Positions 19,460-40,807 of a DNA stretch of 50,131 nt are shown here, piece by piece. Numbering within the stretch: position 1 is the stretch's first letter; each line of letters opens with the position of its first letter. Source of the stretch: Candidatus Woesebacteria bacterium (GTDB lineage Bacteria; Patescibacteriota; Microgenomatia; UBA10105; UBA927); assembly GCA_044223895.1 (NCBI GenBank), contig JBGALL010000004.1:1-50131 (forward strand), in the 5' to 3' direction. The notes beneath the pieces are model-generated. The model was not told the origin of the DNA. It saw only the letters and a program-made list of their open reading frames with translations, and did not search any database. A program made the position numbers and the translations under genes.

Positions 19460-20449
19460 TCACGAAGAATATCCATTTGGATGACTCTCATGCCATTTCC
19501 ATGCGGAAGAGATGATAGATTCTATTTCGGAATGCTGAGGCTGCCAACCTAATTCATTGATTATCTTTCCTGGATCCGCAACCAAAATATTCGGATCACC
19601 AGCTCGACGTGGCTTTTCTAATACTGGAAAATCTTTTCCGGTAATTTTTTTAACAATATTTACCACTTCTTTATTGGTTGCCCCTTTTCCGGTAGCGACA
19701 TTATATACACTTGTTTGATGCCCATTCATTAATGCATCCAATGCAGCAAGATGAGCACTAGCCAAATCTTCGACATGAATATAATCACGCTCGCACGTCC
19801 CGTCTCTGGTCTCGTAGTCAGTTCCATATAAATAGAACTCATTTCTTTTCCCTAAAGCCGTATTAATAGCTAGCGGAATAATATGCGTTTCAGGATCATG
19901 ACTTTCACCATATTTACCATCAAATGAAGCACCACAAGCATTGAAGTAGCGCAGGCTGATTGATTCAATAGTATTCTTTCGACTATAGACATGTAAAAGA
20001 TGTTCGAAAGTCAATTTGGACAACCCATAAGGGCTAGATGGATTTTTAGGATGATCCTCAGGGATAGGAACGATACTTGGGAAGCCATACACCGCAGCAC
20101 TCGAGGAAAAGATAAAATATTTCACTTTAGCCTGCTCCATAGCATCCAAGATAGATACAGGACGTATCACATTATTGGTCATATATTTGACAGGGTCTTT
20201 TACGGATTCTTCAACTGATAAATAGGCAGCAAAATGAATGACAGCATCGTAAGATTGTTCAGCAAAAATCTTATCAAGAAGTTCCCGATCACCAATATTT
20301 CCAGTTATTAAGCGCACAGAATCTGGAATAGCCTCTTTATGACCGTGTTCTAAACTATCAAGAACAACAGTTTCGATGTTTTTTTGGTGCAACATCCGTA
20401 CCATGTGACTTCCAATATATCCTGCACCTCCGGTTACGAGTATTCTCAT
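19460..20449 (-). CDS. galE: UDP-glucose 4-epimerase family (GalE; substrate not certain)
   Basis: GGAGYIGSH, HFAAYLSVEES, PYGLSK, LRYFN and DGTCERDYIHV motifs. Confidence 0.9.
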   Translation of the reverse strand: MRILVTGGAGYIGSHMVRMLHQKNIETVVLDSLEHGHKEAIPDSVRLITGNIGDRELLDKIFAEQSYDAVIHFAAYLSVEESVKDPVKYMTNNVIRPVSILDAMEQAKVKYFIFSSSAAVYGFPSIVPIPEDHPKNPSSPYGLSKLTFEHLLHVYSRKNTIESISLRYFNACGASFDGKYGESHDPETHIIPLAINTALGKRNEFYLYGTDYETRDGTCERDYIHVEDLASAHLAALDALMNGHQTSVYNVATGKGATNKEVVNIVKKITGKDFPVLEKPRRAGDPNILVADPGKIINELGWQPQHSEIESIISSAWKWHESHPNGYSS

Positions 20450-20455
20450 ATTATG

Positions 20456-20677
20456 TTATTTTATCGCATTCTTTAGCGATTTGGGAATAAGAAATGATAG
20501 AAGAAGTAATAATGAACCATAAATAACCAGTCTTTCTGCACTAAAGAAAACCCAACGAATATATAATGGTATCGCAACAAGGTAACACAGCAGACCAACA
20601 GAAACAGCTATTCGCCTTTTATAAAAAATTAACAGGATAATTACTAAAGATCCAAAGACAACATCCTGTATTTTCAT
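20456..20677 (-). CDS. Small membrane protein (73 aa)
   Basis: Start MKIQDV overlaps the upstream stop (ATGA). Three hydrophobic segments. Confidence 0.65.
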   Translation of the reverse strand: MKIQDVVFGSLVIILLIFYKRRIAVSVGLLCYLVAIPLYIRWVFFSAERLVIYGSLLLLLSFLIPKSLKNAIK

Positions 20678-21618
20678 AATGAAGAATAATAGGCTATGGT
20701 TTGTTTTAAACCTTCCTCTAACTGCACATGAGGTTCCCATCCAGTCGCTGACTTTACCTTGGAAATATCTGGTCGTCTCACTAATGGATCATCTTGAGGT
20801 AATGGTTGGTGAACAATTTCACTACTACTCCCAGTCATTTTTTTAATTTGTGTGGCTAGTTCTGCCATCGTATATTCTTCCGGATTTCCCAGATTAACTA
20901 CTTCCCCGTTTAATGTTTGAGTCTCTATTACCCGCCAAATACCATTAACTAAATCTGTTACAAAACAAAATGATCTGGTTTGAGTTCCGTCTCCATAAAC
21001 CGTTAGTGGCGTTGATTGTAATGCCTGGTTTACAAAATTTGAAATAACTCTTCCATCGGTTGGACGCATTCGTGGTCCATAGGTATTAAAAATTCGAATA
21101 ATTCTCGTATTTACCGCGAATTTTCTATGATATAGCTGAACGATCATTTCACCATAACGTTTTGACTCGTCATAACATGATCTGATCCCATTTGGATTAA
21201 CATTTCCCCAATAGCTTTCTTTTTGGGGATGTTCTTTCGGATCACCATATACTTCAGAAGTTGAAGCAAATAATATCGTCGCTTGTTTCTCTTTGGCTAA
21301 CTGGAGCATATTTCTGGTTCCCACAGAATTAACCAGTGCTGTTTCTTCTGCAAATTTTTGATAATCTATGACTGATGCAGGTGAAGCAAAATGAAAGATA
21401 TAGTTAACTGGTTCATCAAGATGGATCTCTTCGCTAACATCGTGTTGAATAAATCTGAATAAAGAATTTTTTTGGGCGGAAGTAAGATTATTTAATGATC
21501 CGGTTATTAAATTATCTATAGCAATTACTTTGAATCCCTTTTGTAATAAAAAATCAACTAAGTTCGATCCAATAAAGCCTGCACCACCGGTTACAATACA
21601 TGTCTGTTGATTCGTCAT
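20674..21618 (-). CDS. uxs: UDP-glucuronate decarboxylase (UDP-xylose synthase)
   Basis: GGAGFIGS, HFASPAS, ASTSEVYGDP, YWGNVNPNGIRSCYDESKR and RIFNTYGPRM..DGRVISNF motifs. Confidence 0.9.
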   Translation of the reverse strand: MTNQQTCIVTGGAGFIGSNLVDFLLQKGFKVIAIDNLITGSLNNLTSAQKNSLFRFIQHDVSEEIHLDEPVNYIFHFASPASVIDYQKFAEETALVNSVGTRNMLQLAKEKQATILFASTSEVYGDPKEHPQKESYWGNVNPNGIRSCYDESKRYGEMIVQLYHRKFAVNTRIIRIFNTYGPRMRPTDGRVISNFVNQALQSTPLTVYGDGTQTRSFCFVTDLVNGIWRVIETQTLNGEVVNLGNPEEYTMAELATQIKKMTGSSSEIVHQPLPQDDPLVRRPDISKVKSATGWEPHVQLEEGLKQTIAYYSSL

Positions 21619-21625
21619 AGACTAG

Positions 21626-21634: not shown

Positions 21635-21648
21635 TCTGTTAACAGAAT

Positions 21649-22674
21649 ATGAAAAAGAAAACTACAGTAGGAGTAGCAATTGTCGGAGCCGGCTACTGGG
21701 GTCCCAATTTTATTCGCAATTTTTCCACGATACCCGAATCAACAATTCAATATGTCTGTGATCTCGATAAAAAGCGTTTAAAGAAGATCAATCAACTGTA
21801 CCCTAATATAAAGACCACAACTAAATTTCAGGATGTATTAAATAGTAAAAAAGTTCAGGGGGTTATTATTGCAACTCCGGTAAAAACCCATTTTCCCCTA
21901 GCCAAAATGGCTCTCGAAGCTGGAAAACATGTTTTAGTAGAAAAGCCTATGACTGCAAAAGTTGAAGATGCAAAAGTATTGGTGAGTATTGCAGAAAAAA
22001 AGAAAACTGTGTTGATGGTTGATCATACCTTCGTATATCATCCCGCTGTCCAAAAAATGAAACAACTTATATTAAAAAAAGAGATAGGTGAATTGTTTTA
22101 TTTTGATTCAGTTCGTACTAATTTGGGTTTATTTCAAAACGACACCAATGTATTGTGGGATTTAGCAACCCATGATTTATCAATCATGGACTATCTGTTG
22201 AATCAAAATCCTACTGAAATTATTGCTATCGGTGCTTCTCATATTAGAAAAGATATTGAAAATGTGGTGTATGTGACAGTCCGTTACCCAGGAAGTTTGC
22301 TCGGACATATTCATGTAAACTGGTTAGCTCCAGTAAAACTTAGGACAATTTTATTATCTGGGTATCAGAAAATGATTGCTTACAACGACATGGAACCAAT
22401 TGAAAAAATAAAAATCTATGACCGAAGTATTCGTTACAAACAAAATCAGGAAAATATTAGTTGGAGCAAATATCGCTATCGAGTAGGTAATATCGAATCA
22501 CCGCATATTGGCGATGAAGAAGCCTTACATGTATTGTGTGAACACTTCGTTGAGTGTATCTTAGGAAATGCAAAACCAATTACTGGGGGTGAAGCGGGTT
22601 TACGGATTGTTACAATGCTTGAAGCTGCTCAACAATCTTTAACCAAAAATGGCCAGCCTGTACCGATGTTATGA
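21649..22674 (+). CDS. Gfo/Idh/MocA family oxidoreductase (sugar-nucleotide 3-dehydrogenase-like)
   Basis: VGAGYWG, GKHVLVEKP and WDLATHD motifs. Confidence 0.92.
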   Translation: MKKKTTVGVAIVGAGYWGPNFIRNFSTIPESTIQYVCDLDKKRLKKINQLYPNIKTTTKFQDVLNSKKVQGVIIATPVKTHFPLAKMALEAGKHVLVEKPMTAKVEDAKVLVSIAEKKKTVLMVDHTFVYHPAVQKMKQLILKKEIGELFYFDSVRTNLGLFQNDTNVLWDLATHDLSIMDYLLNQNPTEIIAIGASHIRKDIENVVYVTVRYPGSLLGHIHVNWLAPVKLRTILLSGYQKMIAYNDMEPIEKIKIYDRSIRYKQNQENISWSKYRYRVGNIESPHIGDEEALHVLCEHFVECILGNAKPITGGEAGLRIVTMLEAAQQSLTKNGQPVPML

Positions 22675-23783
22675 AAGTTCCCTTTGTAGATTTATCACGT
22701 ATTCACAAACCCCTAACAACAGAGATACTCAAGGCAATTGAGAATGTTATCGACTCCAATGGATTTATTTTAGGAAAAGAAGAGGAACAGTTTGAAAAAG
22801 AATTTACTAAGTATGAAGGAGCTAAGTTCGGAATTGGAGTCGCAAATGGTACTGATGGTATCCTCCTGGCTCTCAAAGCTTGTGGGATTAAACCAGGTGA
22901 CGAAGTTATTACCCAAGCCCATACCTTTATTGCCAGTGCTCTTGCAATAACTTATGCAGATGCTATTCCCGTATTTGCAGATATAGACCCTTTATCATTA
23001 ACACTCGACCCTCAATCGGCAGAAAAAATGATCACCAAAAAGACAAAAGCTCTTCTCCCGGTATGCCTCTATGGACAACCTGCAAATCTCAAAAAGTTAC
23101 AGAAATTAGCTTCAAAATATAAGCTCAAACTTATTTTGGATAACGCTCAAGCACACGGTGCAACCTATCAAAATAAAACCTTAGGAACCTATGGAGACGC
23201 TTGTTCTTATTCTTTTTATCCAGGTAAAAATTTGGGAGCTTTTGGTGATGGTGGATTTGTAACAACTAATTCAACTCTGGTAGAAAAAAATGTTCGACTA
23301 CTGCGAAATATCGGAAGGAACGGATGGTATCGTCATCCAGTAAAGGGTTATAACAGTAGACTTGATACGATACAAGCAGCAATCCTTTCAATTAAACTTA
23401 AACATCTTAATACCTGGACAGAAGAACGACGATCTCTGGCAAAGAGATATACTGAACTACTGAGTGATCTTCCTATTACCCTTCCACAAGAATTTCCTGA
23501 TAGAAAACATGTCTATCATCTCTATGTAATTCAAACCAAACAACGTGAAAAACTTATAAATTTTTTAGAAGAGCAAGGCATCCATAGTTCAATCCATTAT
23601 CCTGTTCCGGTACATAAACAACCAGCTTACAAAGAACTTCCTAAGAAAAAATTGCCGGTCTCAGAACGAGTTGCCAAAGAAGTTGTCTCTTTACCTTTCT
23701 TCGTCGGGATGACTCATACAGAGCAAGATTACGTAATCGAAAAACTAACATTATTTTATTCTCGCACATCCAAGACAAGATGA
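22671..23783 (+). CDS. DegT/DnrJ/EryC1/StrS aminotransferase
   Basis: NGTD, DNAQAHG, SFYPGKNLGAFGDGG and NSRLDTIQAA motifs. Confidence 0.95.
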   Translation: MKVPFVDLSRIHKPLTTEILKAIENVIDSNGFILGKEEEQFEKEFTKYEGAKFGIGVANGTDGILLALKACGIKPGDEVITQAHTFIASALAITYADAIPVFADIDPLSLTLDPQSAEKMITKKTKALLPVCLYGQPANLKKLQKLASKYKLKLILDNAQAHGATYQNKTLGTYGDACSYSFYPGKNLGAFGDGGFVTTNSTLVEKNVRLLRNIGRNGWYRHPVKGYNSRLDTIQAAILSIKLKHLNTWTEERRSLAKRYTELLSDLPITLPQEFPDRKHVYHLYVIQTKQREKLINFLEEQGIHSSIHYPVPVHKQPAYKELPKKKLPVSERVAKEVVSLPFFVGMTHTEQDYVIEKLTLFYSRTSKTR

Positions 23784-25633
23784 TTGAAATCATCTAGAAC
23801 CACTGGAAACGTTTTTTCGAGTAATGGCCTGTTAATAGTGTAAGGGAAATCTTTTTTATCTTGGGGAGGTAAAATAATATAATCAACCTCAGTATCAGCA
23901 ACAGCATAACGAAGACTCTCACTATCTTCCACCTCAAAAACATTTCTAATTCTATCAGCCCTGGCGTTATCAGCTTCTGTAAGGAGACTCGCAGGTATTT
24001 TAAAAAACCCGTAATAGTTTTTTCTTCCTGCTAAGGTTACTGGATCAAAAATATCTTCGTAGGAAAGGAAAACTGCATTTTTGGGAGTATTCTGATTTAT
24101 AAATGAAACAATTGATCCATAGGTCGTCAGATCAACAGGAAACATGTAATCATTTTTGATAACCATAAAATCTATTATTCCTGACAGAAACAATAGGGGC
24201 AGTCCTAGGTAGAGTATACGGGTAATTTTTTTATGTAATTCCCCAAGATATACAATACCTGCTGCAGCAAAAAAACTGGTTACCACCAGAAACACATTCA
24301 GGAACTTTTGGTCGATTACACCGAGTGGAATATTAATAACCATAAATATCGCCACCAGCAAAAACATCGGTAAAAAAACCCCTCTCGGTTTCTTATGTTT
24401 GAACAAACCTACTAGTATAAAAATTAGTGAAATTCCATAATTGGCCAGAAAAAATTCCACCAGCCAAAAAGGATGACTCTGTCCTTCACTACTAACGACA
24501 GATCCTTTTGGACCTGTAAAAAAATGAATTACTCCTCTAGAGATGTAAGGCAGCCAGGGACGAATAAATAGGAGAGTTATAAAAGTAGCATTAGAAAATA
24601 ATATAAACCCGTCTCGCCACCTTCTTTTGAGAATTAAGGTAAGTAGTAAAGATACTAATAGACCTGCAGTCAAAACAATGTGCCATAAGGTAAGCATGCC
24701 GACTAGTAGAGAGAACACAAAGATCATTGGGGTATGTAACTTTTTTTCTTCTAAATACTGATGGAACAGTATATATATAAGAAAGAAAAACGCCAAAGAA
24801 ATACCCAAGTGTCGTTGATTTACAAACACATTTAAGGTAAAAAACAGCGAATAGATTGATCCGTCGAATGGTCCTGCAAAAAGATAATTTGGATTGTGAA
24901 GAATAGAAGTAAGGTTTATTCCAAACTTTTGAAAAAATGGAATGAACATTAATCCTCCATGGAAAATGCAACCAATCAGCGCAACTAGACCAATGCTCGC
25001 CTTTCCGAATACTCTCTTCCCAAGCGAATAGACTACTAATAAAAACAAACTAAATCCAATAATACTAGGAAGATTTACTGCATAATTTAGTGGAAGACCA
25101 AAATGCTCAAATAACGCCGACCAGAATTGAAAAAGAAAATGATACGGATGTTCAGTCCCTGCAATAAATGGTGATGTATAGGGAATGTTTTGTCCCCAAG
25201 ACATTGAACGCAAGATTGAAAGTGCATGACCAAAATCAAATACGGCATTTCTGGCAATTTGAAGCGTTCCATTACTACTAACTTTAAAGGTCTTAAACAT
25301 AATATAAGTAGCCACAGATAAGGAAATTATCACGGCAAAAACATCAGGAAGTGAGAGACCTTGTAAAGAAATATTTTTGAATATTTTTTTTCTTTTCATC
25401 CAGGTTAATGCGAAGCTGATAATTGTAAAAAGTGACACCGCCAAAAACAAGGGATCATTCATTGAAGATAATAGACAGGCTATTGCATAGGTTAGCGGAA
25501 GTGAGACTAATAACCCTAGGGTGATAATGATAGTCACCGAAAATAATAGGTCTTTTATTCCAGAAAAGAAAGTTTTGTAGAGCCAGAGTCCTACAAAAAA
25601 TATAGATAGATGATAAAACACTACAATTAACAT
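23756..25633 (-). CDS. GT-C-type multipass membrane protein
   Basis: About 13 TM segments. Loop DFGH..ILRS..WGQN.P and YHFLF motifs. C-terminal soluble domain with TPKNAVFL, LAGRK and VDYI. Confidence 0.75.
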   Translation of the reverse strand: MLIVVFYHLSIFFVGLWLYKTFFSGIKDLLFSVTIIITLGLLVSLPLTYAIACLLSSMNDPLFLAVSLFTIISFALTWMKRKKIFKNISLQGLSLPDVFAVIISLSVATYIMFKTFKVSSNGTLQIARNAVFDFGHALSILRSMSWGQNIPYTSPFIAGTEHPYHFLFQFWSALFEHFGLPLNYAVNLPSIIGFSLFLLVVYSLGKRVFGKASIGLVALIGCIFHGGLMFIPFFQKFGINLTSILHNPNYLFAGPFDGSIYSLFFTLNVFVNQRHLGISLAFFFLIYILFHQYLEEKKLHTPMIFVFSLLVGMLTLWHIVLTAGLLVSLLLTLILKRRWRDGFILFSNATFITLLFIRPWLPYISRGVIHFFTGPKGSVVSSEGQSHPFWLVEFFLANYGISLIFILVGLFKHKKPRGVFLPMFLLVAIFMVINIPLGVIDQKFLNVFLVVTSFFAAAGIVYLGELHKKITRILYLGLPLLFLSGIIDFMVIKNDYMFPVDLTTYGSIVSFINQNTPKNAVFLSYEDIFDPVTLAGRKNYYGFFKIPASLLTEADNARADRIRNVFEVEDSESLRYAVADTEVDYIILPPQDKKDFPYTINRPLLEKTFPVVLDDFNHLVLDVRE

Positions 25634-25634
25634 T

Positions 25635-27491
25635 TTATTTTCTCCAAAAAACTATCAATGAGAGACAACAGATAATGAAACCTGTCCCAGATATAATAGC
25701 TCCCCAAGCGGCAACCCGATTAGGAAGATAATAGAGTGTACCTGTCTGTGATTCACCAGAGGTAATCATAAAATTCATAAGATGTTGCCCAGTTTCAACT
25801 GGTTCGAATGATTTATTATCGACGATTAATCGCCAATTTGGATCAAAGGCAATTAAAGTTGTCAAAATACTAGTATCTTCCCTATTAGGTAGAGGAATAG
25901 TCCAGCTGTTATGGCCGTATTTAACGTTTCCGATAATGACTGTGTTTAGGCTAAAAAGGCTATCATGCTCAATCACTTTATAGACTGCTAATCTAGAAAA
26001 ACTAGAAAGTTTTTGGAGATCAGTATGTCTGTCTAGTTCCGAAATAATCATTTCCCGTAGAGATTCCTTATAAGTATAATCATCTATGAAGATTTTATGT
26101 TCTGTATCCTCTGGGACGATAATATATGATACGCCAGCACTTTTGATTTTTGTAAGATTGTTATTTAGTTGTAATTCCCTAATTATTCCTGCTGGCGAGC
26201 TTTCAGAAAAAACAGATGCTGAGCTTAAACTCGGATGGAGAGCGCTTGAATATCCAAAGCGTTCAACTGTAGGAAACCATAGCGTTCTACCAAAATCATT
26301 ATCAGCTATTAAGACATTTTTAAGTGTCTCATAATCGTGGGTTATAACCGGAGGAGTTACATTGCCAGTAACTTTACCCAAGAAAACTAGTCGTAAAGAG
26401 AATATCCAAAATAGAAGAATAACAATAATAATTCCTTTAAATAATTTTTTTGATACATAGTCTGTAAATTGAGGCAGTAGGAGTGAATATCCTAAGGCAG
26501 TTAAGACATACCACTTGGTAGGATCACGAAACAAAAAAAATCCCGGCACATGCGCATACAACCATTCATATACCGTTCCTAACGGTTCCTGTACTCCCTT
26601 CCCCAAAAAAGCACCAAGTAAGATAATTACACCGAAAAATATGGAAATTGGTGCTGGTGACTCTTGTAAGAAAATACTAAAAGCTAGAATCGGAATTATT
26701 AAAAATTCAGGTTTAAAAAAGTAAACTCTCCCAAATAAATTTTCAGGATAATTTGGATGTAGCATTGATAGTGAGTGACTAAAATCAGCGACACTGAAAA
26801 AAGATAAACCTGATATACCAGTTTTTTGAACAAAACTCACAGCTAAACTATCTTTAAATACGATTGTGGGTAATATCCAAAAAGCATTTAGCACGATCAA
26901 AATACACGGTATTAAAAGACTATACTGAGTTATTTTCAACTGTTTTCTGAATACTAGAAAAGAAGTTAACAAGACCAGGAGAAGTAAGGTTATGAATGCC
27001 AGACGAATATCCAATAAGACCAAAAATGATACCAGCATTCCAGTCGCAACAGAATGAAAAAGTAATTTTTTAGGTTTTCGGAAGTAAATAAGTGCTGAAT
27101 ATAAAACCCATGGAACAAGCGAATAAGCGAGTGAGACTCCTAATTGTCCACCATCAAACAACAATAAAATATATGTATTAGTTGTATAGATCAGGGAACC
27201 GAATAAAGAAGCATAGTGAGATATTTTTAGGTGTTTACAAAGTGTATACATTCCCAAAATAGCAATACTAAACACAACAAACCACCATATTTTGTCAATC
27301 AAAAACCATGATAGTCCCAATCGATAGAGTAAATAAGTAATAACTCTAAAGGGATAATCTATCCATAAAGATGGCAAAGCACTTATTCCAAATTCTTCAT
27401 TACTCCTCCAAACCTCGGGTAAAAACGATAACCCTTGTAATTGTTCAAGGAAGAAAAAAGGAGCATCACCGGCCGCAAAAAAGAAATTCAT
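25635..27491 (-). CDS. AftD/DUF3367-like GT-C membrane protein
   Basis: AGD loop, LGKG..EPLG, GFFLFRDPTKW and GRTLWFP motifs. C-terminal AFDPNW plus a TM. Confidence 0.72.
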   Translation of the reverse strand: MNFFFAAGDAPFFFLEQLQGLSFLPEVWRSNEEFGISALPSLWIDYPFRVITYLLYRLGLSWFLIDKIWWFVVFSIAILGMYTLCKHLKISHYASLFGSLIYTTNTYILLLFDGGQLGVSLAYSLVPWVLYSALIYFRKPKKLLFHSVATGMLVSFLVLLDIRLAFITLLLLVLLTSFLVFRKQLKITQYSLLIPCILIVLNAFWILPTIVFKDSLAVSFVQKTGISGLSFFSVADFSHSLSMLHPNYPENLFGRVYFFKPEFLIIPILAFSIFLQESPAPISIFFGVIILLGAFLGKGVQEPLGTVYEWLYAHVPGFFLFRDPTKWYVLTALGYSLLLPQFTDYVSKKLFKGIIIVILLFWIFSLRLVFLGKVTGNVTPPVITHDYETLKNVLIADNDFGRTLWFPTVERFGYSSALHPSLSSASVFSESSPAGIIRELQLNNNLTKIKSAGVSYIIVPEDTEHKIFIDDYTYKESLREMIISELDRHTDLQKLSSFSRLAVYKVIEHDSLFSLNTVIIGNVKYGHNSWTIPLPNREDTSILTTLIAFDPNWRLIVDNKSFEPVETGQHLMNFMITSGESQTGTLYYLPNRVAAWGAIISGTGFIICCLSLIVFWRK

Positions 27492-27495
27492 AGAA

Positions 27496-30306
27496 TTACA
27501 TTAAAACTAGATAAATAAGACTACTTACCAAACTTAATCCACTTATAAATAATCCTTTGTAAAAGGCAACTTGTGGTGCATATTCAATTTTTGGAAGTTC
27601 AGTTGTTTCAGAAGGTGCAATCCATCCGTTTGCATAGCCATTTACTGGTACATGAAGGGCAGTTTTATAGCCAGATGAAGTTAATTTCCATCGAGTATCA
27701 AACGTATAAGGAAATATGAATATATTACGAGGTTTATTAGTGAGAACAGAACTATCTGAATTAATAAAACTGAAAAATATTTTTGGGGGCATATCAGAAT
27801 GACGTGGAACTACGATCCGATAATATCCAGATTCATACGTATTGAGAACACCATTTTGTATCACTTTGTCATTTACTGATAAAGAAGTGACAGAACTTGC
27901 CGTCTGAATACGATAGGTTCCCTTCATGGGAACGGTTATTCCGTAACGATAATATTTTTGATCGGAAACCCAAAGTTTGTTTTCTAGTTCAGATATAATT
28001 GTGCGAGTAAATGTTTGTACTTCATCTGTACCAGATTCCGCTTGTTTTCGTAAAAATCCTAGTACACGTGATGTATAAATATCTTCGTCTCTGCCATCTA
28101 ATTGACCCAAAGTTTTCATTATTTTTTCAAGGTAACTATTATATTCTGCCAAACTTTTATCTTGAGCAGCTTGTGACTTGCCTAAGCGCTTTAACTTCAA
28201 GTATTCACTTTCTTTTAACAATGCAGTTGATAAGAAACTGTCGATTTGCTGAGTGTTAGTTGCAGTAGAAGGTATTGTCAATTTCCGCGACACTAGAAAT
28301 GGATACAGCCAAGATTCAGGAAGAATTTTAGCATCTGGAAGAGATATTGATTGCGTAAATTTGGAATATTCATTTTCTGAACAGAAATAACACTCGGCTT
28401 GCAAACCAATCATCTTTGGATGCAGATTGTCAGCAGTCTTCCAATCCGTGGTAATTGCCGCCGACTCCGAGGAAACAAACTCGCTCACCGTAGGTACATT
28501 TACTAATGGAAGAATTACTTCCTGAATATAGGGATCAACTGTCTGCGTAGAGAAATTATAGATACTCCATGCTCCTTCAGATTTAGTAGCTTCTCCAGCA
28601 ATTTCTTGAAGAAATTTTTCATCGAATGCTCTTGAGGAAGATGATAATGATGATTGGACATCCCCACGATACAGTATCGTACTTATTCGCAGTATGTTTG
28701 CTAATCGCAAAAAAGTTGTTTTGTCTTTAAGATAAAGAGCATCATAAAGCGCCTGAACTATTTCATCAGATGAATCATTGGCTACAATTATTCTGTTAGA
28801 AATGATTCTTGGTAGGGCATCCAAACTATAGTATCCCCAGTTGTAGGTATCTATTGGCTTGTTTATAAATCCTTTATCTAGTTCAGGGACAAGCAACACC
28901 CTACCAGAATCTATTTTCTGATCTAATTCTCTAGCAATAGATTGTACATACAATGGGAGATGTACTCTGGTTGTAAAATCTGAGGAAAACTGAAAGAAAT
29001 TTGGGAAGAAGAATGGAAAATGATAAATGAGAAGTCCAACAAGTATCATCACTCCGATAGTTTTAATTTTATTCATATGATCGATACCAAGCTGTAGAAA
29101 ATATCCACTCAAAACAATAATTGATAACCACAGTACAGGAGCGAATTTATACAAACTTGATCGAAATATTATGAACCCAGGAATTTTTCTCATCAAAAGC
29201 AAATATATAAATCCTGTTGGAGCATGCGATCCAGCGCTGAAAAACAGCCCAACTACAAGTAAAATAAATACTAGCCATAAAAAATATTTATGTCTGTGAG
29301 AAGTTTTCTTTCGAAAAAACAAAATTCCTAAACAGATACTCATCACAGGAATATAACTAAAAAATATTAGTAATGGATTGTGAAGAAATTGTTGTGAAAA
29401 TGGATGTGAGGCGTTATTGTACCAATCAGGGATTCCTTGCAGTCGTAATAAATTTGGAATCGATGCAAATTTACTAATTTCTCGCTCCCAGGCAATGATG
29501 CCTTCAACTCCGCCCTCAGATGAAACAGCGCCACTATATGTACCACGAATTAAATCTATTTGGGGCAAGATCCAATATGAATTTAATAGGAAAAACATTC
29601 CCAAAAAAGAAAAAATTATTGATATTGATCTTATTAGGGATGGTATACCTTTAGCTTTTAACTCTAGTAGCGAGAAGAAACTCCAGGTAAGAAACCAAAC
29701 AATAACTGAGGCTCCAAATAACGGCGGTGATCCTCCCCCATTACAAAAAAAATAAAGCAATCCAAAGAGAATAGCTCCACGAATCACTGAAATCCGTTTT
29801 TCAAAGACTGCGATGAATAAAACGATCGATACTGGTAAGGCTGCATAAAGAGAAAATTTAGCTCTTTCTGCAATAAACCATGCTTGTAATATATAAAAAT
29901 TAAATATCCAAAAAATACTGGTATAAAGTCGAAGAAACCATTTATTTTTTTCTGGAAACAAAAAAAGCATCGCCCCATACATTGAAATACCCATAAGAAA
30001 AAACCAAAAGATAAACACCAACGGTTGAGCAACTTCTAGCGATCCAAATATGTTTTGTAGAATTAATTCCGGAAGTTGAATTATCAGAAATCCTTTATAC
30101 AGAGACCAGTCCACCCCAGTATTTACTGAAGGGTTAAAAGTATTCCATAGCATTTCCATGTGATGAGTGATATTGAACCTAAATCCACTGTCATGACCAA
30201 TTATCACTGATCCGTTTCCAAACCATAACAGAGGTGTCAGAGAGAGAATGAATAGTATGAGGAGTTCGAAGAGAATATATTTCCGTACATGTCGTAAGAA
30301 TTTCAT
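27496..30306 (-). CDS. AftD/DUF3367-like GT-C membrane protein with a large extracellular region
   Basis: IGHDSG, NSYWILP, GFIIFRSSLYKF, RVLLVP and VNGYANGW motifs plus a C-terminal TM. Start placed at MKFLRH. Confidence 0.75.
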   Translation of the reverse strand: MKFLRHVRKYILFELLILFILSLTPLLWFGNGSVIIGHDSGFRFNITHHMEMLWNTFNPSVNTGVDWSLYKGFLIIQLPELILQNIFGSLEVAQPLVFIFWFFLMGISMYGAMLFLFPEKNKWFLRLYTSIFWIFNFYILQAWFIAERAKFSLYAALPVSIVLFIAVFEKRISVIRGAILFGLLYFFCNGGGSPPLFGASVIVWFLTWSFFSLLELKAKGIPSLIRSISIIFSFLGMFFLLNSYWILPQIDLIRGTYSGAVSSEGGVEGIIAWEREISKFASIPNLLRLQGIPDWYNNASHPFSQQFLHNPLLIFFSYIPVMSICLGILFFRKKTSHRHKYFLWLVFILLVVGLFFSAGSHAPTGFIYLLLMRKIPGFIIFRSSLYKFAPVLWLSIIVLSGYFLQLGIDHMNKIKTIGVMILVGLLIYHFPFFFPNFFQFSSDFTTRVHLPLYVQSIARELDQKIDSGRVLLVPELDKGFINKPIDTYNWGYYSLDALPRIISNRIIVANDSSDEIVQALYDALYLKDKTTFLRLANILRISTILYRGDVQSSLSSSSRAFDEKFLQEIAGEATKSEGAWSIYNFSTQTVDPYIQEVILPLVNVPTVSEFVSSESAAITTDWKTADNLHPKMIGLQAECYFCSENEYSKFTQSISLPDAKILPESWLYPFLVSRKLTIPSTATNTQQIDSFLSTALLKESEYLKLKRLGKSQAAQDKSLAEYNSYLEKIMKTLGQLDGRDEDIYTSRVLGFLRKQAESGTDEVQTFTRTIISELENKLWVSDQKYYRYGITVPMKGTYRIQTASSVTSLSVNDKVIQNGVLNTYESGYYRIVVPRHSDMPPKIFFSFINSDSSVLTNKPRNIFIFPYTFDTRWKLTSSGYKTALHVPVNGYANGWIAPSETTELPKIEYAPQVAFYKGLFISGLSLVSSLIYLVLM

Positions 30307-30310
30307 GTCA

Positions 30311-30979: not shown

Positions 30980-30991
30980 AGATGTTATTGA

Positions 30992-31000
30992 ATTATATCA
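30992..31000 (-). promoter_or_regulatory. Extended -10 element (TGATATAAT), internal promoter
   Basis: Perfect TGnTATAAT 12 nt upstream of the ATG at 30979. Confidence 0.5.
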
Positions 31001-31017
31001 ATTTTTGAGGTCTTCGA

Positions 31018-31338: not shown

Positions 31339-33533
31339 AATTGTGTGCCAATATAAATAACCAATAAGATTCCACCGATGATTGATGTATAGAACCCATA
31401 GGTAAAATATTTTTGAAATTCATAGTCAACCGTACCCACTAGATGCTTATTCGAAATTTTGGAGGGATCTATCAACCATCCATTAGCAAAGCCATTTACT
31501 AGCATAGGACTGGTTCCAGGCATTTGATCCAGTATTAGTTTCCAATGTTTGTCATAGTCCTCCGATAAGATCACTAAAAATGGCCTTGAACTATTCTCCG
31601 CATTAATACTAACTGAATATTCAACTGAAGATTTTTTTTCAAAATAGACGGATGGAACTTCTATAGGATCTTGATTACAGATATTGTTTCTCTGACAATC
31701 TACTTGAGATATGTACGCTGATCGAAAGGAAGAACCTTGGATAACACCAGATTCAGAAGCATAAATAGTATCCGCCACATAAAGTGTCGGCCTCACAATA
31801 TTCTCAGGTAACTCCTTAACTTCAAAAAATCCATTTGAAAAAAGATCTTTAAGCTGAAGTTGATTGAATATATGATCATAGCCTGCCTGCGTATTTAGAC
31901 TCGAAATATCCTCATTCATATCGTATTTATAATTTGGGAATTTAGGAAAGTTTTTCAAAACCATTTCATCATTATTTCTGAATATGTAGCGCACGTTCAG
32001 TAAGGACAGCACTTGTTTGATTGTTTGCAGATCATTTTTTTTAAAAGCCTCGAGCATAGTATTCCTATAGAGGCCAAAAGTTCCAAATCCCGGATAGTCT
32101 TTTTTATTCCCCAGAAGTCTCACCATAGACAACCCTACATAGGCTCCTCCTTCTTTGCCCGAGACTATTTGGAAGTAGGGCAAGGTGAGTGGCAAGGTAA
32201 GAACATTACCATTGTTGGGAAGTTGATAGATATATTTTATAGCTTTATCGATATCAGTATCGGGTTTATAAATAGTTGAAACATTTTTAGACTGATATAA
32301 AAAGCTTTTTTCGTATGGATTAATCAAGAATGGATAAATTCTAAATATAGTTACCAGGATACATATCCCACTAAGAAAAAGGGCTGTCTGAGATTTGCGC
32401 TTTTCTAATAGAAAATATAATGAGGTACCAAATAATAGTGCGTAAAAAAATATAAAAACAAAGTACCATTTCTCATCAAATGATCGAAACATTATAAATC
32501 CGGGTAAGCGAAATAATTGCCGGTAGAGTCGTACACCTATCAAGGTAATATTTGCGCTTACAAGAAAGAAACACGCACTCCAAAAAATGCCGAGAAGAGC
32601 TAACAACCTTGAACGTTTTACTAGAAAGCCACTAAAGGCTATTAGCGGAATTATTAAGATGCCTATACTGCCTAAATGCCAATTTGTCGGCTGAAATAAC
32701 TCCACACTCAATTTCCCAAGTGTTTGGCGATTTTCATCAAAATAGTGAAGTCCCAAGTTCTCTTGAATTTGCTTAGAAAAAATATATGAGTTGATACTGT
32801 TACCTTTATCGATAACCGATGCAATTGTTGGAATAATATGAAAGCCATGAATTAATACCGATACCAGAAGTAACATAGATAACGTTTTCCAAGGAATCGG
32901 CTTTTTAAGTACATAGATAAGATAAGTACAGATAAATACCATGGTTGCTGGGAAAAATGATACTAACTGGGGCATACTAGAAAAACCAAAATTACCAGAA
33001 AATATTAATGACACTGTTACGATAGACAAAAAGTAGCCTACTTTTTTAGACAAACATAACTGCAATATGAGGTAACTCATCAGTGGATTAAGAAAAATTT
33101 GATTTTGAGTATCCAATGAAGTAATCCAGCCTAATTTTGTAGCCATTCCAAGATACATTATTCCTGTACAGATAGCCACGCACTCTCTAAGCAATGTCCC
33201 CTTCTTCAGAGGCTGTGATAGTAATAATTTAACCAACAAATACATTGCAAAATAGGCTACTGAAAGTTGAATCCCATGGGAAATATTAATGAGATTTGTT
33301 GGACTAGAAATTATCTGTTTAAGAAGTGATAAAAAATAATAGTTCGGAATAAACGCATACATAGAAGCTCCCAACATATTTTTTTGCTCCAGATAATATT
33401 TGGCAATTTGTAATGGATTTATAAAATACAGACGAGAAGCATCTCCACCTAAGTCTACAAACCCAGGTTTAAGCCAGAAGAAGGGGACAAAAAATAAGAC
33501 TATACCAACCAAAAGGGCGAAATATCGTTTCAT
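31317..33533 (-). CDS. AftD/DUF3367-like GT-C membrane protein
   Basis: LGGD, GFIMFRSFDEKW, VLTLP, SEDYDKHW and VNGFANGW motifs plus a C-terminal TM. Confidence 0.75.
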   Translation of the reverse strand: MKRYFALLVGIVLFFVPFFWLKPGFVDLGGDASRLYFINPLQIAKYYLEQKNMLGASMYAFIPNYYFLSLLKQIISSPTNLINISHGIQLSVAYFAMYLLVKLLLSQPLKKGTLLRECVAICTGIMYLGMATKLGWITSLDTQNQIFLNPLMSYLILQLCLSKKVGYFLSIVTVSLIFSGNFGFSSMPQLVSFFPATMVFICTYLIYVLKKPIPWKTLSMLLLVSVLIHGFHIIPTIASVIDKGNSINSYIFSKQIQENLGLHYFDENRQTLGKLSVELFQPTNWHLGSIGILIIPLIAFSGFLVKRSRLLALLGIFWSACFFLVSANITLIGVRLYRQLFRLPGFIMFRSFDEKWYFVFIFFYALLFGTSLYFLLEKRKSQTALFLSGICILVTIFRIYPFLINPYEKSFLYQSKNVSTIYKPDTDIDKAIKYIYQLPNNGNVLTLPLTLPYFQIVSGKEGGAYVGLSMVRLLGNKKDYPGFGTFGLYRNTMLEAFKKNDLQTIKQVLSLLNVRYIFRNNDEMVLKNFPKFPNYKYDMNEDISSLNTQAGYDHIFNQLQLKDLFSNGFFEVKELPENIVRPTLYVADTIYASESGVIQGSSFRSAYISQVDCQRNNICNQDPIEVPSVYFEKKSSVEYSVSINAENSSRPFLVILSEDYDKHWKLILDQMPGTSPMLVNGFANGWLIDPSKISNKHLVGTVDYEFQKYFTYGFYTSIIGGILLVIYIGTQLWRKKIN

Positions 33534-34605
33534 GGAGAAACAGCAGTATCTATTGATTTAACGATATAGGAAACTTCTTGATCGGTTAATTTAGGATATA
33601 AAGGAATTGTAATTGTTGAGTTCCCAATTTTTTCAGCTATTGGATAACTCTGAAGTTTACGGCTACCCCAATATCTGCATCTTGGAGTGCGTGCAAGATC
33701 TGATCACGTTTGGATTCTGACACCCAAATGGTATACAGATGTCTTGCATGCTTAGAGTTTTTAAGTACTGCAGGAGTTTGTATTTTATGATTATGTTTTA
33801 ATCCTTTATCATAGGCTTTACTTATCTGTTCTTTCCGAGCTAGAAAATTTTCAATATGCTCCAGTTGATGGATAAGTAAAGCAGCTTGAATATTTGTCAT
33901 GTTTGATTTGTAGCCAAGAAATTCCATGTCATAATGTTCGTATTTTTTGGAATATCTATCTGCTGCGTTCTTACTCATTCCATGTAATCTTGCTTTCTTT
34001 AACCACTCATAGGTTTTCGCATCATGACAGGTCAATGCACCTCCCTCACCGGAAGTAATATTTTTGGTTGCATAAAAACTAAAACAACCTATATCTCCTA
34101 ATTGACCAGGTCGAATGCCATCCCTGATTCCTTCTATGCAATGGGCACAATCTTCAATTATTTTAAGATTGTGTTTATCTGCAATTTTGCGAATTTTTTT
34201 CATGTCACACATTTGACCATAAAGATGTACTAATAGTATAGCTTTGGTATTGGGGGTAATTTTTTCTTCTATATGATTAGCGTCTATATTTCCGGTATCA
34301 GGTTCTACATCTACAAACACAGGAGTTGCTCCACAATATTCAATTGAATTTGCTGTAGCTATAAATGACATTGGTGTAGTTATGATTTCATCACCGGGTT
34401 TAATATCATAGTATTTTAAGGCGATGAACAAAGCGTCAGTACAAGAATTTACACCAACGGCATATTCATTCCCAGTATATGTAGCAAATTTTTCTTCAAA
34501 TTCATTTACACGAGAACCGGTAGTAATAAATAATGAATTTAGAACAGCTAAACATTCTTGTTTATCTTCTTCTGAAAGATTATGTTTATAGAAATCTATA
34601 TGCAT
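33530..34605 (-). pseudogene. DegT/DnrJ aminotransferase with an internal deletion and frameshift near the 3' end
   Basis: The ORF (EDCAH, SFYATKNITSGEGG) stops at 33637 after VNFRVIQ. The family C-terminus SYPIAEKIGNSTITIPLYPKLTDQEVSYIV continues in another frame (33649-33530). Confidence 0.8.
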
Positions 34606-34606
34606 A

Positions 34607-38547: not shown

Positions 38548-39390
38548 TTACTGATCTGATTGAGCAATAATTGCTTGTCGATCAGAGGAAGGATATATAT
38601 ACGTATTATACTGTTTGTGTTTAAAATTATGCATTACATAGATCATATCCGACCAAGTCGATTTAATTGCTCGTTTATGGAACATTCCGTGTATCTTAGC
38701 AATTTTTTTATTTGGATGTGTTTTGTTAAATTCGCTAATTGCTAATAACTCACCAACATATTCACAAAGAATTTCTTCATCAGTTCCTATAATATCGTCT
38801 AAATAACAAAAAATTCTTGGTAACATGTTTGCATCTTTCGTATCGAACAATTTCAATACTGATTTTGCTGAAGAATAATAATCAGTATCAATAGCTACAA
38901 ATCCAATTGGTGCAACTGATGTTTTGATAAATGATGGAACCGTTTTCTTAACATCACCTATTACTAAGGTTGTCGTATGCAATAATCTTTTTTTTAGAGC
39001 TTCAACATCCATTGAAAAAAATCCTTTTTGCCATATATAAGGCAGATCCCTATAATCTGCTGGTTCAGGTAAACCTATAGCTATATCAAAACCGTATATA
39101 TCTATCATCACACCAGTCAGCTTCGTAATTTCTATAGATAATTGTTCTAATATTATTAACCCTATACCTCCAGCCACACCAAATTCGTATGCTGAAATCC
39201 TTGATATTCCTAACGCTTTCGCCTCTAAAGCTGCTTGATATAACCCGTAGGCATAATACGGTCTTTCTATACCATCGACATCCATCCTAAATGAAAATAG
39301 CCATGATAATGGCAATTTTCGAAGAAGAAGAACCCCCAATAAAATTGGATTTAAAAGTACGCGGAGTACGAGTGTTTTATGATATTTCAT
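38548..39390 (-). CDS. Hypothetical protein, TylF/class I methyltransferase-like
   Basis: EFGVAGG, YGFD..GLP, IDTDYYSS and LDD motifs. Confidence 0.65.
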   Translation of the reverse strand: MKYHKTLVLRVLLNPILLGVLLLRKLPLSWLFSFRMDVDGIERPYYAYGLYQAALEAKALGISRISAYEFGVAGGIGLIILEQLSIEITKLTGVMIDIYGFDIAIGLPEPADYRDLPYIWQKGFFSMDVEALKKRLLHTTTLVIGDVKKTVPSFIKTSVAPIGFVAIDTDYYSSAKSVLKLFDTKDANMLPRIFCYLDDIIGTDEEILCEYVGELLAISEFNKTHPNKKIAKIHGMFHKRAIKSTWSDMIYVMHNFKHKQYNTYIYPSSDRQAIIAQSDQ

Positions 39391-39881
39391 ATCGATAATT
39401 TCTTAATTACTTTGGCAGGATTTCCTGCTATAACGACATTTTTAGGAAATGATTTAGTGACAACACTTCCAGCTCCAACTACACAATTATCACCGAGTGT
39501 TACTCCTGGCAGAATGATTGTTCGAGAGGCGATCCATACATTTTTTCCGATACTTACGGGTTTGGCAATAATTGTATTTCTGTTCAACAGATCGTGCTGG
39601 GCGGTAATAATCATACAATCTTTTGAAAAGCCACTGCCTTCTCCAATAGAAATTTTTTCGTAATCTAATAGGAAAACGTTACTAAAAGAAACATCTTTTG
39701 CCAAGATATTTGTACCATAAAAAAAACGAAATCCCGGTTCTATTGAACAGTTTATACACTTTTTTAAACTAAAGTGAAATAAGAAGAATTTGATTGGAGG
39801 GATAATACAAATCACCGGAAAAAGTAATAAAAGATATGACCAAATACTTTTTGAAGGTATCCCCTGGCTATATTCGATCAT
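39387..39881 (-). CDS. Hexapeptide-repeat acetyltransferase
   Basis: IGKNVWIASRTIILPGVTLGDNCVVGAGSVVTK...GNPAK. Confidence 0.92.
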   Translation of the reverse strand: MIEYSQGIPSKSIWSYLLLLFPVICIIPPIKFFLFHFSLKKCINCSIEPGFRFFYGTNILAKDVSFSNVFLLDYEKISIGEGSGFSKDCMIITAQHDLLNRNTIIAKPVSIGKNVWIASRTIILPGVTLGDNCVVGAGSVVTKSFPKNVVIAGNPAKVIKKLSI

Positions 39882-40807
39882 ATCTTAAAACTCTTCCGAT
39901 ACAGATCGTAAAATCTTTTTGTTCTATCAGGGAGAACATCTTCGAAAGAATCTAAATTATTAATAAGTCGAAAGGTGTCTCTGTATCCAATAATTTCATG
40001 TTCAAGATTAGTTATTAAATCTTGCTTATTCCTGTCTTGATAGACTGTTGCAGGACTATAAATTACACTGTCTGGGAAATATTTTTGAAGGATATACGCG
40101 GCCCATATATCGTCTAACCTTCCAATAAATGGCAACATTGCATAATAAGGCAATACTTTTCGAGATAGGAAGGTATTTTGAGAATTAAAAGGTGAAATAT
40201 TTATAGAACAATACGGTTCAGTTATATCCTGATAGCGAACAATAGGTTTATGGGTTAACCGAGCAATAGCATCAATATCTGGATCTCCATCCCAAAGATC
40301 AGATTGTACCAAAACTTTTCTTTGTATTTTTCCTTTATAAACTACATCCCTCCGTGATTGCAATAATTCTATTGGATATCCTCTATGCCACAAATAATTG
40401 TCTTTGGTAACTGACAATGGATCAAAGACTCCATTTATAGATTCGTAAGCGTGGATATTAACAGTTTTATCTATATACACATTTTCACCCCAGGTTTGGT
40501 AAGGAACATTATCATCATCGACGGTTGCCATAATATCTGCACCCTGGTCATAGGAATATATAAAGCCAATATTTCTGCGTTCGATAGTTTTCCAGCCAAT
40601 CTCATCACTCAGCTTTTTATATTGTTTTTCTTGATCCTCTGGAGCAAGATAGATAACGTTTTTATACTTTTTTTCTAGAGCTTTATATTCATCATGAGGA
40701 GTTTTAAGATCACCCACAATCACAAATTTCCAATCCTTTTTCTCACAGAATAATAAGGTTGCCCTAGTAGGAGAATTTATTGTAGTGGTGACAATATATT
40801 TATTCAT
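39878..40807 (-). CDS. STELLO/DUF288 or RGP (GT75, UDP-arabinopyranose mutase)-like protein
   Basis: TTTINSPT, VGDLKTP, RRNIGF, TVDDDN, WHRGYP, LWDGDPDIDA, FNSQNT and GRLDDIW motifs. Confidence 0.8.
   Translation of the reverse strand: MNKYIVTTTINSPTRATLLFCEKKDWKFVIVGDLKTPHDEYKALEKKYKNVIYLAPEDQEKQYKKLSDEIGWKTIERRNIGFIYSYDQGADIMATVDDDNVPYQTWGENVYIDKTVNIHAYESINGVFDPLSVTKDNYLWHRGYPIELLQSRRDVVYKGKIQRKVLVQSDLWDGDPDIDAIARLTHKPIVRYQDITEPYCSINISPFNSQNTFLSRKVLPYYAMLPFIGRLDDIWAAYILQKYFPDSVIYSPATVYQDRNKQDLITNLEHEIIGYRDTFRLINNLDSFEDVLPDRTKRFYDLYRKSFKI

Follow-up and report, generated by a model that had tools for sequence, protein, structure and literature searches.

The 50,131-nt window analyzed here (contig JBGALL010000004.1, positions 1–50,131, of the Candidatus Woesebacteria assembly GCA_044223895.1) is a single long region of envelope-glycan genes, with ~35% G+C and almost all genes on the minus strand. 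One of these genes, at 39878–40807 (−), encodes P0001, a 309-amino acid (aa) protein. From its motifs, a phmmer search, a family profile and an AlphaFold2-predicted fold, we infer that P0001 belongs, as a divergent bacterial representative, to the GT75 (MtdL–Hyg20–UAM) kind of divalent-cation-dependent, flavin-independent nucleoside diphosphate (NDP)-pyranose/furanose mutase. With modest confidence, we assign P0001 as a GDP-L-fucopyranose/furanose mutase acting in the synthesis of a surface glycan; it probably also accepts GDP-L-galactopyranose.

To our knowledge, the origin of furanoses in bacterial envelopes has hitherto been found in Glf-type flavin mutases or in the mycobacterial decaprenyl-phosphate-arabinose (DPA) route, and the only known sources of L-galactofuranose and L-fucofuranose are the antibiotics A201A and hygromycin A. 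In open-access papers and bioRxiv, we found no description of the P0001 clade and none of L-fucofuranose or L-galactofuranose in bacterial surface glycans. Where surface-glycan furanoses are documented, as in Campylobacter jejuni HS:41, they are reported with flavin-dependent mutases (PMC12369002). As surveyed in PMC9937993, the characterized metal-dependent GT75 mutases come solely from plants and from two antibiotic pathways of actinomycetes, with MtdL and Hyg20 as the sole characterized bacterial members; MtdL is presented there as the first GT75 NDP-pyranose mutase to be solved structurally.

Homology, fold and active site of P0001

The translated open reading frame (ORF) of P0001 contains, in order, TVDDDN (residues 95–100), FDP (128–130), HRGYP (141–145), LWDGDPDIDA (171–180) and IGRLDDIW (228–235). 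This is the complete RGP/UAM motif set, in the order that had been claimed for this ORF in an initial inspection of the letters alone (the sequence-only reading). In an alignment of 79 diverse relatives, R142, G143, D177 and D233 are invariant and D97–D99, N100, Q210 and R230 are at least 90% conserved, and because of this conservation the motifs cannot be ascribed to chance. P0001 has no predicted transmembrane (TM) segment and is a soluble, cytosolic protein.

A single-sequence phmmer search of P0001 against the PDB returned the MtdL chains (E 7.7e-15) as the sole meaningful set. A profile built from the 79 relatives matched MtdL with E 2.6e-52, aligning residues 3–294 to residues 8–325, and no other PDB sequence at E ≤ 0.01. 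When the members were scanned singly, 21 of 79 matched Pfam STELLO (best E 4.9e-21) and 15 of 79 matched Pfam RGP (best E 3.1e-14); judged by sequence, these relatives bridge P0001 to both families. The AlphaFold2 model of P0001 (pLDDT 98.0, pTM 0.94) shows the architecture of GT75-type mutases, with a GT-A Rossmann-like N-terminal region, a family-specific core and a C-terminal helical region. Foldseek placed six MtdL entries at the top (TMq 0.83–0.85, E ~1e-23), followed by rice UAM2 (8cid; E 1.3e-10, TMq 0.63) and then by generic GT-A enzymes (TMq ≤ 0.5). The RGP/UAM resemblance of P0001 is true homology, and we regard it as firm. Profile, fold and column counts bear out the suggested kinship with flavin-independent RGP/UAM-type mutases and STELLO-like proteins, the catalytic arginine included.

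The family is large. At E ≤ 1e-3, it comprises 5,480 proteins in a 90%-identity collection and 2,488 representatives of 50%-identity clusters, 1,549 of which match at E ≤ 1e-10. The best 120 of the 5,480 homologs carry no Pfam domain and are called 'hypothetical' wherever a name exists. Among 61 genomes searched at E ≤ 1e-3, 11 (the source genome counted) contain a P0001 homolog, with strong matches in four other relatives (27–46% identity) and none in a genome of the same genus; the gene is accessory. Several longer ORFs or database proteins contain the mutase domain, namely those of loci L035 and L058 (414 aa) and L029 and L042 (528–533 aa), and P0128 (615 aa) and P0257 (1162 aa). These are possibly fusions; the ORF starts at the loci, from a simple ORF caller, are uncertain.

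Residues of P0001 were mapped onto MtdL by profile alignment (7yua numbering, identical to that of PMC9937993), with column counts over the 79-member alignment. D97-D98-D99-N100 align with MtdL D109–N112, and the DXD motif (D109–D111) is Asp in 78, 76 and 77 of 79 sequences. R142, in HRGYP, corresponds to the nucleophilic, self-glycosylated R159 (79/79). D177 corresponds to D195, which contacts Arg159 and is the proposed orienter of the Arg–sugar adduct (79/79), and D233 to the general base D260 (79/79). The S228/Q229 pair, in contact with sugar and phosphate, is kept as S209/Q210 (Gln in 76/79), the β-phosphate-binding R257 as R230 (78/79) and the phosphate-binding R289 as R259 (77/79). Two positions depart from MtdL. 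The Mn2+ ligand H287 is Q257 in P0001 (Gln in 64, His in 9 and Ser in 4 of 79), and D87, which contacts the sugar O4, is I75 (Ile in 54, Val in 11 and Tyr in 5 of 79). The sugar pocket and metal site of P0001 therefore differ from those of MtdL. In the mutagenesis reported for MtdL, D87N and D87S were inactive; plant enzymes have Ser at that position, so Asp87 is not universal (PMC9937993). The same source describes the Mn-binding His as conserved in the active AtRGP1–3, and the equivalents of His287 and Arg257 as lost in the inactive AtRGP5.

The base pocket bears on the nucleotide. The main text of PMC9937993 sets Thr13, Asn42 and Ser86 of the GDP-using MtdL against Pro, Asp and Asp in the active UDP-using plant enzymes; T13P weakened GDP binding ~28-fold and S86D abolished it. 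P0001 has T8, K35 and T74 at these positions. Column 8 is Thr in 78 of 79 relatives, and column 74 has a Cys, Thr or Ser in 65 of them; the six residues most frequent there, accounting for 77 of the 79 sequences, do not include Asp. Judged by these residues, the P0001 pocket resembles the GDP type at two of the three positions and the plant type at none.

If P0001 works as MtdL does, a metal ion would be bound by the DDD motif and the diphosphate, and Arg142 would act as the nucleophile at the sugar C1, expelling the NDP. Asp233 and Asp177 would shuttle protons as the ring opens and recloses through O4, and renewed attack by the NDP would yield the NDP-furanose.

The putative mutase operon and its counterparts in relatives

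P0001 is encoded within a run of six minus-strand ORFs at 38548–43502, joined by 4-nt overlaps or 1-nt gaps, and this packing suggests a single operon. In order, the genes encode a GDP-L-fucose synthase (Fcl), a DUF268 methyltransferase, a Glyco_trans_1_2 glycosyltransferase (GT), the mutase, a hexapeptide acetyltransferase and a 280-aa protein. Fcl (42564–43502, −) scored 471.4 bits against NCBIfam NF047922 (cut-off 500) and matched Escherichia coli GDP-fucose synthetase with E 1.6e-103; its stop codon lies in a 4-nt overlap with the ORF that follows. It carries 'GSSCIYP' and 'YAVAK', in keeping with S-x-C and YxxxK, which we take to be the epimerase-reductase motifs of GDP-L-fucose synthase. 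The sequence-only reading had seen a GalE-family epimerase two genes from the mutase; a short-chain dehydrogenase/reductase (SDR) does stand there, but it is Fcl and no 4-epimerase.

The DUF268-type S-adenosylmethionine-dependent protein (41785–42567, −; Pfam DUF268, 2.8e-14) is a candidate sugar O-methyltransferase. The GT between it and the mutase (40809–41915, −; Pfam PF13524, 5.1e-12) is a candidate furanosyltransferase; its GTG start is uncertain because of a 131-nt overlap of its ORF with that of the methyltransferase. The hexapeptide-repeat O-acetyltransferase (39387–39881, −; Pfam Hexapep) overlaps the mutase stop by 4 nt and resembles maltose/galactoside acetyltransferases, with an NCBIfam maltose O-acetyltransferase match at 1.7e-31 that is below the cut-off. 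The final gene of the run encodes the 280-aa protein (38548–39390, −), which has one N-terminal hydrophobic segment and no Pfam or NCBIfam match.

In the pathway that we propose, Fcl would make GDP-β-L-fucopyranose and is the presumed supplier of the mutase substrate. GDP-L-fucofuranose would then be used by the neighboring soluble Glyco_trans_1_2 GT, the transferred residue may be O-methylated by the DUF268 protein or O-acetylated by the hexapeptide acetyltransferase, and the product would decorate a cell-surface glycan of the host, apparently a Patescibacteria-like organism with a small genome. A ManC-like nucleotidyltransferase in the same window (5724–6806, −; Pfam NTP_transferase and ManC_GMP_beta-helix) is a possible source of GDP-mannose for this GDP-sugar branch.

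Homologous loci were collected by scanning one genome per species, giving 67 loci at 31–69% identity, each taken with 8 kb of flank unless the contig ended sooner. The taxa covered are Paceibacterota, Daviesbacteria, Rubritalea, Planctomycetota, Acidobacteriota, Pelagibacter, Prochlorococcus, Actinomycetota and archaea. Orthologs of window genes among the called ORFs were those with ≥38% identity and ≥70% query coverage. Our ORF caller missed the mutase itself in 18 of the 67 loci, mostly GC-rich, so the partner counts that follow come from tblastn on all 67. Two partners recur near the mutase homologs, an SDR and a short GT2. We had initially treated the SDR as one family ('c1') and dropped this grouping, as motifs split it in two. 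Type A ('SSACIYP ... GGREKAPAA') is GDP-mannose 3,5-epimerase (GME); the protein of locus L003 matches Arabidopsis GME with E 3.4e-98, the next family following at 1.4e-27. Type B ('FSSSAAYP ... YGWAKLT') received only generic 'epimerase/dehydratase' names in an Atlas look-up. A GME ortholog was found at 8 of 67 loci, the type-B SDR at 24 and the GT2 at 33, with type-B SDR and GT2 together at 20.

In a quick maximum-likelihood tree (IQ-TREE, 62 sequences, the five loci whose mutase match covered <90% of the query being omitted), P0001 falls in a 12-member clade (SH-aLRT 95) made up of five loci with GME, six with neither partner and the window itself. The closest parallel to the window is L003, a Daviesbacteria locus with a 65%-identical mutase. 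It encodes a flippase, a Glyco_trans_1_2 GT (52% identical to that of the window, two genes upstream of the mutase), GME, the mutase and a DUF268 methyltransferase (38%). By sequence, this is the gene set of the window with GME in place of Fcl. At L001, a DUF268 methyltransferase homolog (42%) adjoins the mutase, and both L001 and L003 contain GT11-family fucosyltransferase-like genes. At L004 (Rubritalea marina), a PF13524-family GT lies directly upstream of the mutase, a 48%-identical ortholog of the UDP-glucuronate decarboxylase (Uxs) of the window lies two genes upstream, and GME is also present.

The product of Fcl is GDP-L-fucose and that of GME is GDP-L-galactose. MtdL and Hyg20 are each reported to interconvert the pyranose and furanose forms of both GDP-L-fucose and GDP-L-galactose (PMC9937993). 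GME activity is assigned to the A201A pathway, and A201A contains L-galactofuranose (PMC6678494). Our reading of P0001 as a mutase of these two sugars draws on this match, as Fcl in the window and GME in the relatives make exactly the two substrates of MtdL and Hyg20.

The loci of the GT2 and type-B SDR cassette form a separate 41-member clade (support 99), with mutases 40–47% identical to P0001. Here the short GT2, the mutase and the type-B SDR follow one another in that order (L019:2392-4998; also L021, L028, L030-L039, L042, L043, L047, L054, L056 and L058), in hosts that include Pelagibacter, Prochlorococcus, Planctomycetota, Verrucomicrobiota and Actinomycetota. In NCBIfam, the ~240-aa cassette GT2 comes nearest to AglJ, dolichyl-phosphate hexose transferase and ArnC, without reaching the cut-off of any of them. 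In sampled cassette loci, GT-C-type neighbors comprise PMT_2 proteins in L020 (two copies), L054, L028 and L064, a TMEM260-like protein in L021 and a DUF2142 protein in L042. A design in which the mutase feeds a lipid-phosphate-furanose to a GT-C enzyme is plausible for this sister clade from its gene content. The sequence-only reading had drawn such an architecture, a GT2-made lipid-phosphate sugar passed to GT-C transferases, for the window. It recurs in the sister clade; at the window locus and in its genome it was not seen. No ortholog of the cassette GT2 or SDR is present in the window or the genome, and because of this the lipid-phosphate route could not be placed at the window locus. 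The GT2 of the window at 44277–45311 found only generic GT2 enzymes in the PDB (GalT1, chondroitin synthase, TagF and TarP) and no polyprenyl-phosphate glycosyltransferase.

Homologs also occur in T4-like cyanophages. Synechococcus phages S-T4 (L099, NC_048049.1, 7001-7909), Sf-CH5 and Sf-CH8 encode a 58%-identical 'hypothetical protein', in a cluster annotated with phosphoheptose isomerase, a heptose kinase/adenylyltransferase fragment, a cytidylyltransferase-related protein, a methyltransferase, a nucleotide-sugar epimerase and glycosyltransferases.

Substrate and reaction weighed against known systems and alternatives

Among characterized enzymes, MtdL (Marinactinospora thermotolerans, A201A pathway; PDB 7xpr, 7xps, 7xpt, 7xpu, 7yua and 8hl8) and Hyg20 (Streptomyces hygroscopicus, hygromycin A pathway), the GT75 GDP-L-galactose/GDP-L-fucose mutases, are the closest counterparts of P0001. 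MtdL and P0001 share the fold, full-length profile homology, the DDD motif, the nucleophilic Arg, the Asp195/Asp260 pair, the Ser-Gln pair, Arg257, the GDP-type Thr13 and a small residue at position 86. MtdL and Hyg20, like the P0001 family, are paired with a maker of GDP-L-fucose (as in the window) or GDP-L-galactose (as in the relatives). The differences lie in identity (~20%), in length (376–395 aa against 309 aa, P0001 having a shorter C-terminal helical region), in the replacements His287 to Gln, Asp87 to Ile and Asn42 to Lys, and in setting, as MtdL and Hyg20 belong to antibiotic clusters whereas the P0001 family occurs in surface-glycan operons of uncultured bacteria and in cyanophages. 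P0001 is also missed by Pfam RGP. Plant UAM/RGP proteins (OsUAM and AtRGP1–3; 8cid) belong to the same superfamily, share the motif set (DDD, the RG[FY]P arginine, DPD.DA and R..DD) and are flavin-independent and divalent-cation dependent, as proposed for P0001. Their fold is more distant (TMq 0.63), they use UDP-sugars with Pro/Asp/Asp where P0001 has Thr/Lys/Thr, and their UDP-xylose 4-epimerase context is absent from the P0001 operon. STELLO (DUF288, PF03385) is connected through the 21 matching relatives, although P0001 itself is soluble and has no match to it. STELLO proteins are Golgi membrane proteins, and we know of no enzymatic activity assigned to them. Glf/UGM and the CDP-D-fucopyranose mutase HS41.17 of C. 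jejuni (PMC12369002) share the reaction class proposed for P0001 and the presumed role of supplying furanose donors for bacterial surface polysaccharides; the flavin mutases of the Glf/UGM type have an unrelated fold and an FADH2 cofactor.

Several observations weigh against the reading as a GDP-L-fucose mutase. P0001 itself is below detection in Pfam and NCBIfam scans, which gave nothing even at E ≤ 10, RGP (PF03214) and STELLO (PF03385) included, and Pfam RGP had no match in all six frames of the entire assembly. Its homology was shown through PDB sequences, the family profile and the fold because these library scans had failed; the comparison with both Pfam families that had been suggested as a check thus came out negative for P0001 and positive for 15 and 21 of its 79 relatives, with STELLO the more frequent match. 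The Mn-ligand His and the Asp87 essential in MtdL are Gln257 and Ile75. No Fcl ortholog was found among the called ORFs of the 67 loci, so the link to Fcl comes from the window operon. For the six clade relatives that lack GME, Pfam scans of the neighbors gave no informative sugar-nucleotide gene, and several of these loci are not glycan clusters. In the assembly searched (1.9 Mb, 135 contigs, 82% complete), no canonical Gmd scored above cut-off. The best TIGR01472 score (180 bits against a cut-off of 415) belongs to an Rmd/Gmd-family SDR (S-x-E...YxxxK motif; best PDB match GDP-6-deoxy-D-lyxo-4-hexulose reductase, 1.1e-81), which directly follows an NDP-sugar dehydrogenase on another contig (C70:15300-17558). 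No GME was found in the assembly. The phage heptose-nucleotide cluster indicates that the clade may take sugars beyond GDP-L-fucose and GDP-L-galactose, and we found no enzyme assay of any P0001-clade member in the literature searched.

The sequence-only reading had proposed a different sugar. In that scheme, Ugd, Uxs and a GalE that works as a UDP-xylose 4-epimerase would supply P0001, taken to be a UDP-L-arabinopyranose mutase, with UDP-L-arabinofuranose passing through a GT2-made polyprenyl-phosphate arabinofuranose to AftD-like GT-Cs. Parts of this scheme hold. Uxs (20674–21618, −) was named correctly, matching human UXS1 with E 5.7e-94 (318 bits, next family 143 bits), and GalE (19460–20449, −) scored 411.5 bits against a TIGR01179 cut-off of 262.3. 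Both lie in the same large glycan region, two NDP-sugar dehydrogenases are encoded elsewhere in the genome, one GT-C of the window is AftD-like by fold, P0001 is homologous to rice UAM2 and a Uxs ortholog accompanies the mutase in R. marina. The linkage fails nonetheless. Uxs and GalE are ~18–20 kb and ~17 genes from the mutase, with two plus-strand genes (21649–23783) in between, whereas the SDR inside the mutase operon is Fcl. Among the ORFs called near the mutase homologs, a Uxs ortholog occurs at 1 of 67 loci (L004, which has GME too) and a GalE ortholog at 0 of 67, and the five GT-C-like proteins of the window have a match at 0 of 67, so that the expected co-occurrence did not materialize, and the partner found in the clade is GME. 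The base pocket differs from that of the active plant UDP enzymes described in PMC9937993 at all three positions (T/K/T against P/D/D), the fold is far nearer the GDP-sugar enzyme MtdL (TMq 0.84) than UAM2 (0.63) and a cassette-type polyprenyl-phosphate GT2 is missing from window and genome, the GT2 at 44277–45311 having matched no such enzyme in the PDB. Uxs is therefore real yet unlinked to the mutase, and we consider the route from UDP-xylose through UDP-arabinopyranose to UDP-arabinofuranose improbable here.

Two further explanations keep the operon and change the role of P0001. The enzyme could be the same kind of mutase acting on another NDP-sugar, such as a GDP-heptose derivative, GDP-D-arabinose or UDP-galactose, with Fcl serving an ordinary fucosyltransferase. 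The family-wide Ile at the sugar-contacting Asp87 of MtdL, the phage homolog among heptose-nucleotide genes, the GT11 genes of L001 and L003 (which hint that GDP-fucose may be used as the pyranose) and the pairing of the sister clade with an SDR of no assignable specificity would all fit. However, Pfam and NCBIfam scans showed no heptose-pathway gene in the window, the genome has its own flavin-type glf for UDP-galactofuranose, and the exchange of Fcl for GME in otherwise matching gene sets (window and L003) has its simplest reading in two routes to the two known substrates; we rate another sugar as unlikely. The other explanation holds P0001 to be a GT-A glycosyltransferase and not a mutase, either STELLO-like or merely self-glycosylating on Arg142, which would use the GDP-sugar as the donor of L-fucose or L-galactose for an acceptor. 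GT75 members are described as bifunctional and of GT-A fold, and loss of the Mn-binding His together with Arg257 is tied to the inactive AtRGP5 (PMC9937993); the His-to-Gln and Asp87-to-Ile changes could thus abolish mutase chemistry, and the excess of STELLO over RGP matches points the same way. Against this, the ring-contraction residues R159, D195, D260, R257 and Q229 are all kept and near-invariant. The mutase gene of the window has a separate GT gene immediately upstream, L004 and L003 have one at a distance of one or two genes on the same side, and in the sister clade a GT2 always adjoins the mutase, which would make a second transferase role redundant. A pure transferase thus appears quite unlikely, and a mutase acting on GDP-L-fucose is the reading that we retain.

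Other glycan genes of the window and the reach of the family

Besides the mutase operon, the window encodes several GT families, a Wzy-like protein, a sugar-phosphate transferase, aminotransferases, acetyl- and methyltransferases, SDR sugar-nucleotide enzymes and large polytopic membrane proteins, as seen in Pfam and NCBIfam scans. Four polytopic ORFs lie within 23756–33533, encoding proteins of 625, 618, 943 and 738 aa, and the sequence-only reading had counted three AftD/DUF3367-like GT-Cs in the window. One of them, the 618-aa protein (25635–27491, −), is AftD-like by fold. Its Pfam GT-C_AftD (PF11847) match of 17.5 bits is below the threshold of 26; its AlphaFold2 model (pLDDT 90.5) has AftD (6w98; E 8e-8, TMq 0.54) as the top Foldseek hit, ahead of OST/STT3, PglB, AglB, DPY19 and AftA. 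Judged by this model, the protein is a GT-C-fold membrane glycosyltransferase with AftD as the nearest solved fold. Its N-terminal Asp9 is invariant in 57 of 57 aligned homologs. Its homologs are 'hypothetical' proteins of the Patescibacteria group; among the best 120, one carries PF11847 and one YfhO, and its Atlas neighbors are mixed (AftD, YfhO and PTPS_related). The mycobacterial AftD shares with it the polytopic GT-C architecture and a periplasmic β-rich domain, but measures ~1,300–1,400 aa against 618 aa, at 11% identity and with a Pfam match of the window protein that stays sub-threshold.

The 943-aa protein (27496–30327, −; 12 hydrophobic segments, no Pfam match) is a weak paralog of the 618-aa enzyme (blastp, 21% over 359 aa, E 8e-6). 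The 625-aa protein (23756–25633, −; 13 hydrophobic segments, no Pfam match at E ≤ 0.01) and the 738-aa protein (31317–33533, −; nine hydrophobic segments, no Pfam or NCBIfam match) showed no GT-C family in Pfam and NCBIfam scans, the sole tests applied to these two. Nothing ties the GT-C enzymes of the window to the mutase. That the window contains no glf was correctly noted; a flavin-type glf (UDP-galactopyranose mutase; 317.6 bits, above cut-off) is present at the end of another contig (C48:48242-49198).

Other features of the glycan region are recorded here for completeness. A DUF4012 protein (3012–5039, −; 675 aa, one TM segment) adjoins the initiating sugar transferase (Bac_transf). Taken with the names of Atlas entries and homologs (Levyibacteriota, Woeseibacteriota and 'Patescibacteria group'), this protein points to a Patescibacteria-like organism. 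A 145-aa SET-domain protein (16739–17176, −; Pfam SET, 1.5e-11) sits between a GT2 and an acetyltransferase inside the glycan gene run. The 184-aa ORF at 18885–19439 (−) encodes the N-terminal half of a GT4 alone, with a full GT4/GT1 gene downstream of it. Between a methyltransferase and the 738-aa membrane protein lies a 106-aa protein (31018–31338, −) with three hydrophobic segments and no family match; its size and position are reminiscent of small GtrA-like flippase subunits. A DegT-type aminotransferase (33637–34605, −; 322 aa) spans profile positions 3–307 of 360 and may be C-terminally truncated.

Bacterial GT75 mutases and their fold were already known, and the chemistry is presumably the same in the P0001 family. 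The new features are the family-wide replacement of the metal-binding His by Gln and of MtdL Asp87 by Ile, the invisibility to Pfam and the occurrence in phages and in the glycan operons of bacteria not yet cultured. The hosts include Patescibacteria, Pelagibacter, Prochlorococcus, Planctomycetota, Verrucomicrobiota, archaea and Synechococcus phages. As a tentative generalization, which we hold well short of conviction, the family may be a large group of flavin-independent NDP-furanose mutases without functional annotation, marked by the His-to-Gln and Asp87-to-Ile signature. Its GME/Fcl clade would put L-galactofuranose or L-fucofuranose into surface glycans, and its sister clade would make a lipid-linked furanose donor independently of both Glf and the mycobacterial DPA pathway.

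The observation uncovers a widespread enzyme family that has no functional annotation in the records examined, together with a prediction that can be tested. The family offers natural versions of the MtdL active site, with Gln for His and Ile for Asp, as useful probes of a mechanism that is still unsettled, and it could supply enzymes for making scarce NDP-furanoses. If the family is active, flavin-free ring contraction would be common in environmental bacteria, including the most abundant marine lineages, and in their phages. If our assignment is true, unusual L-fucofuranose or L-galactofuranose epitopes are predicted on uncultured bacteria with small genomes.

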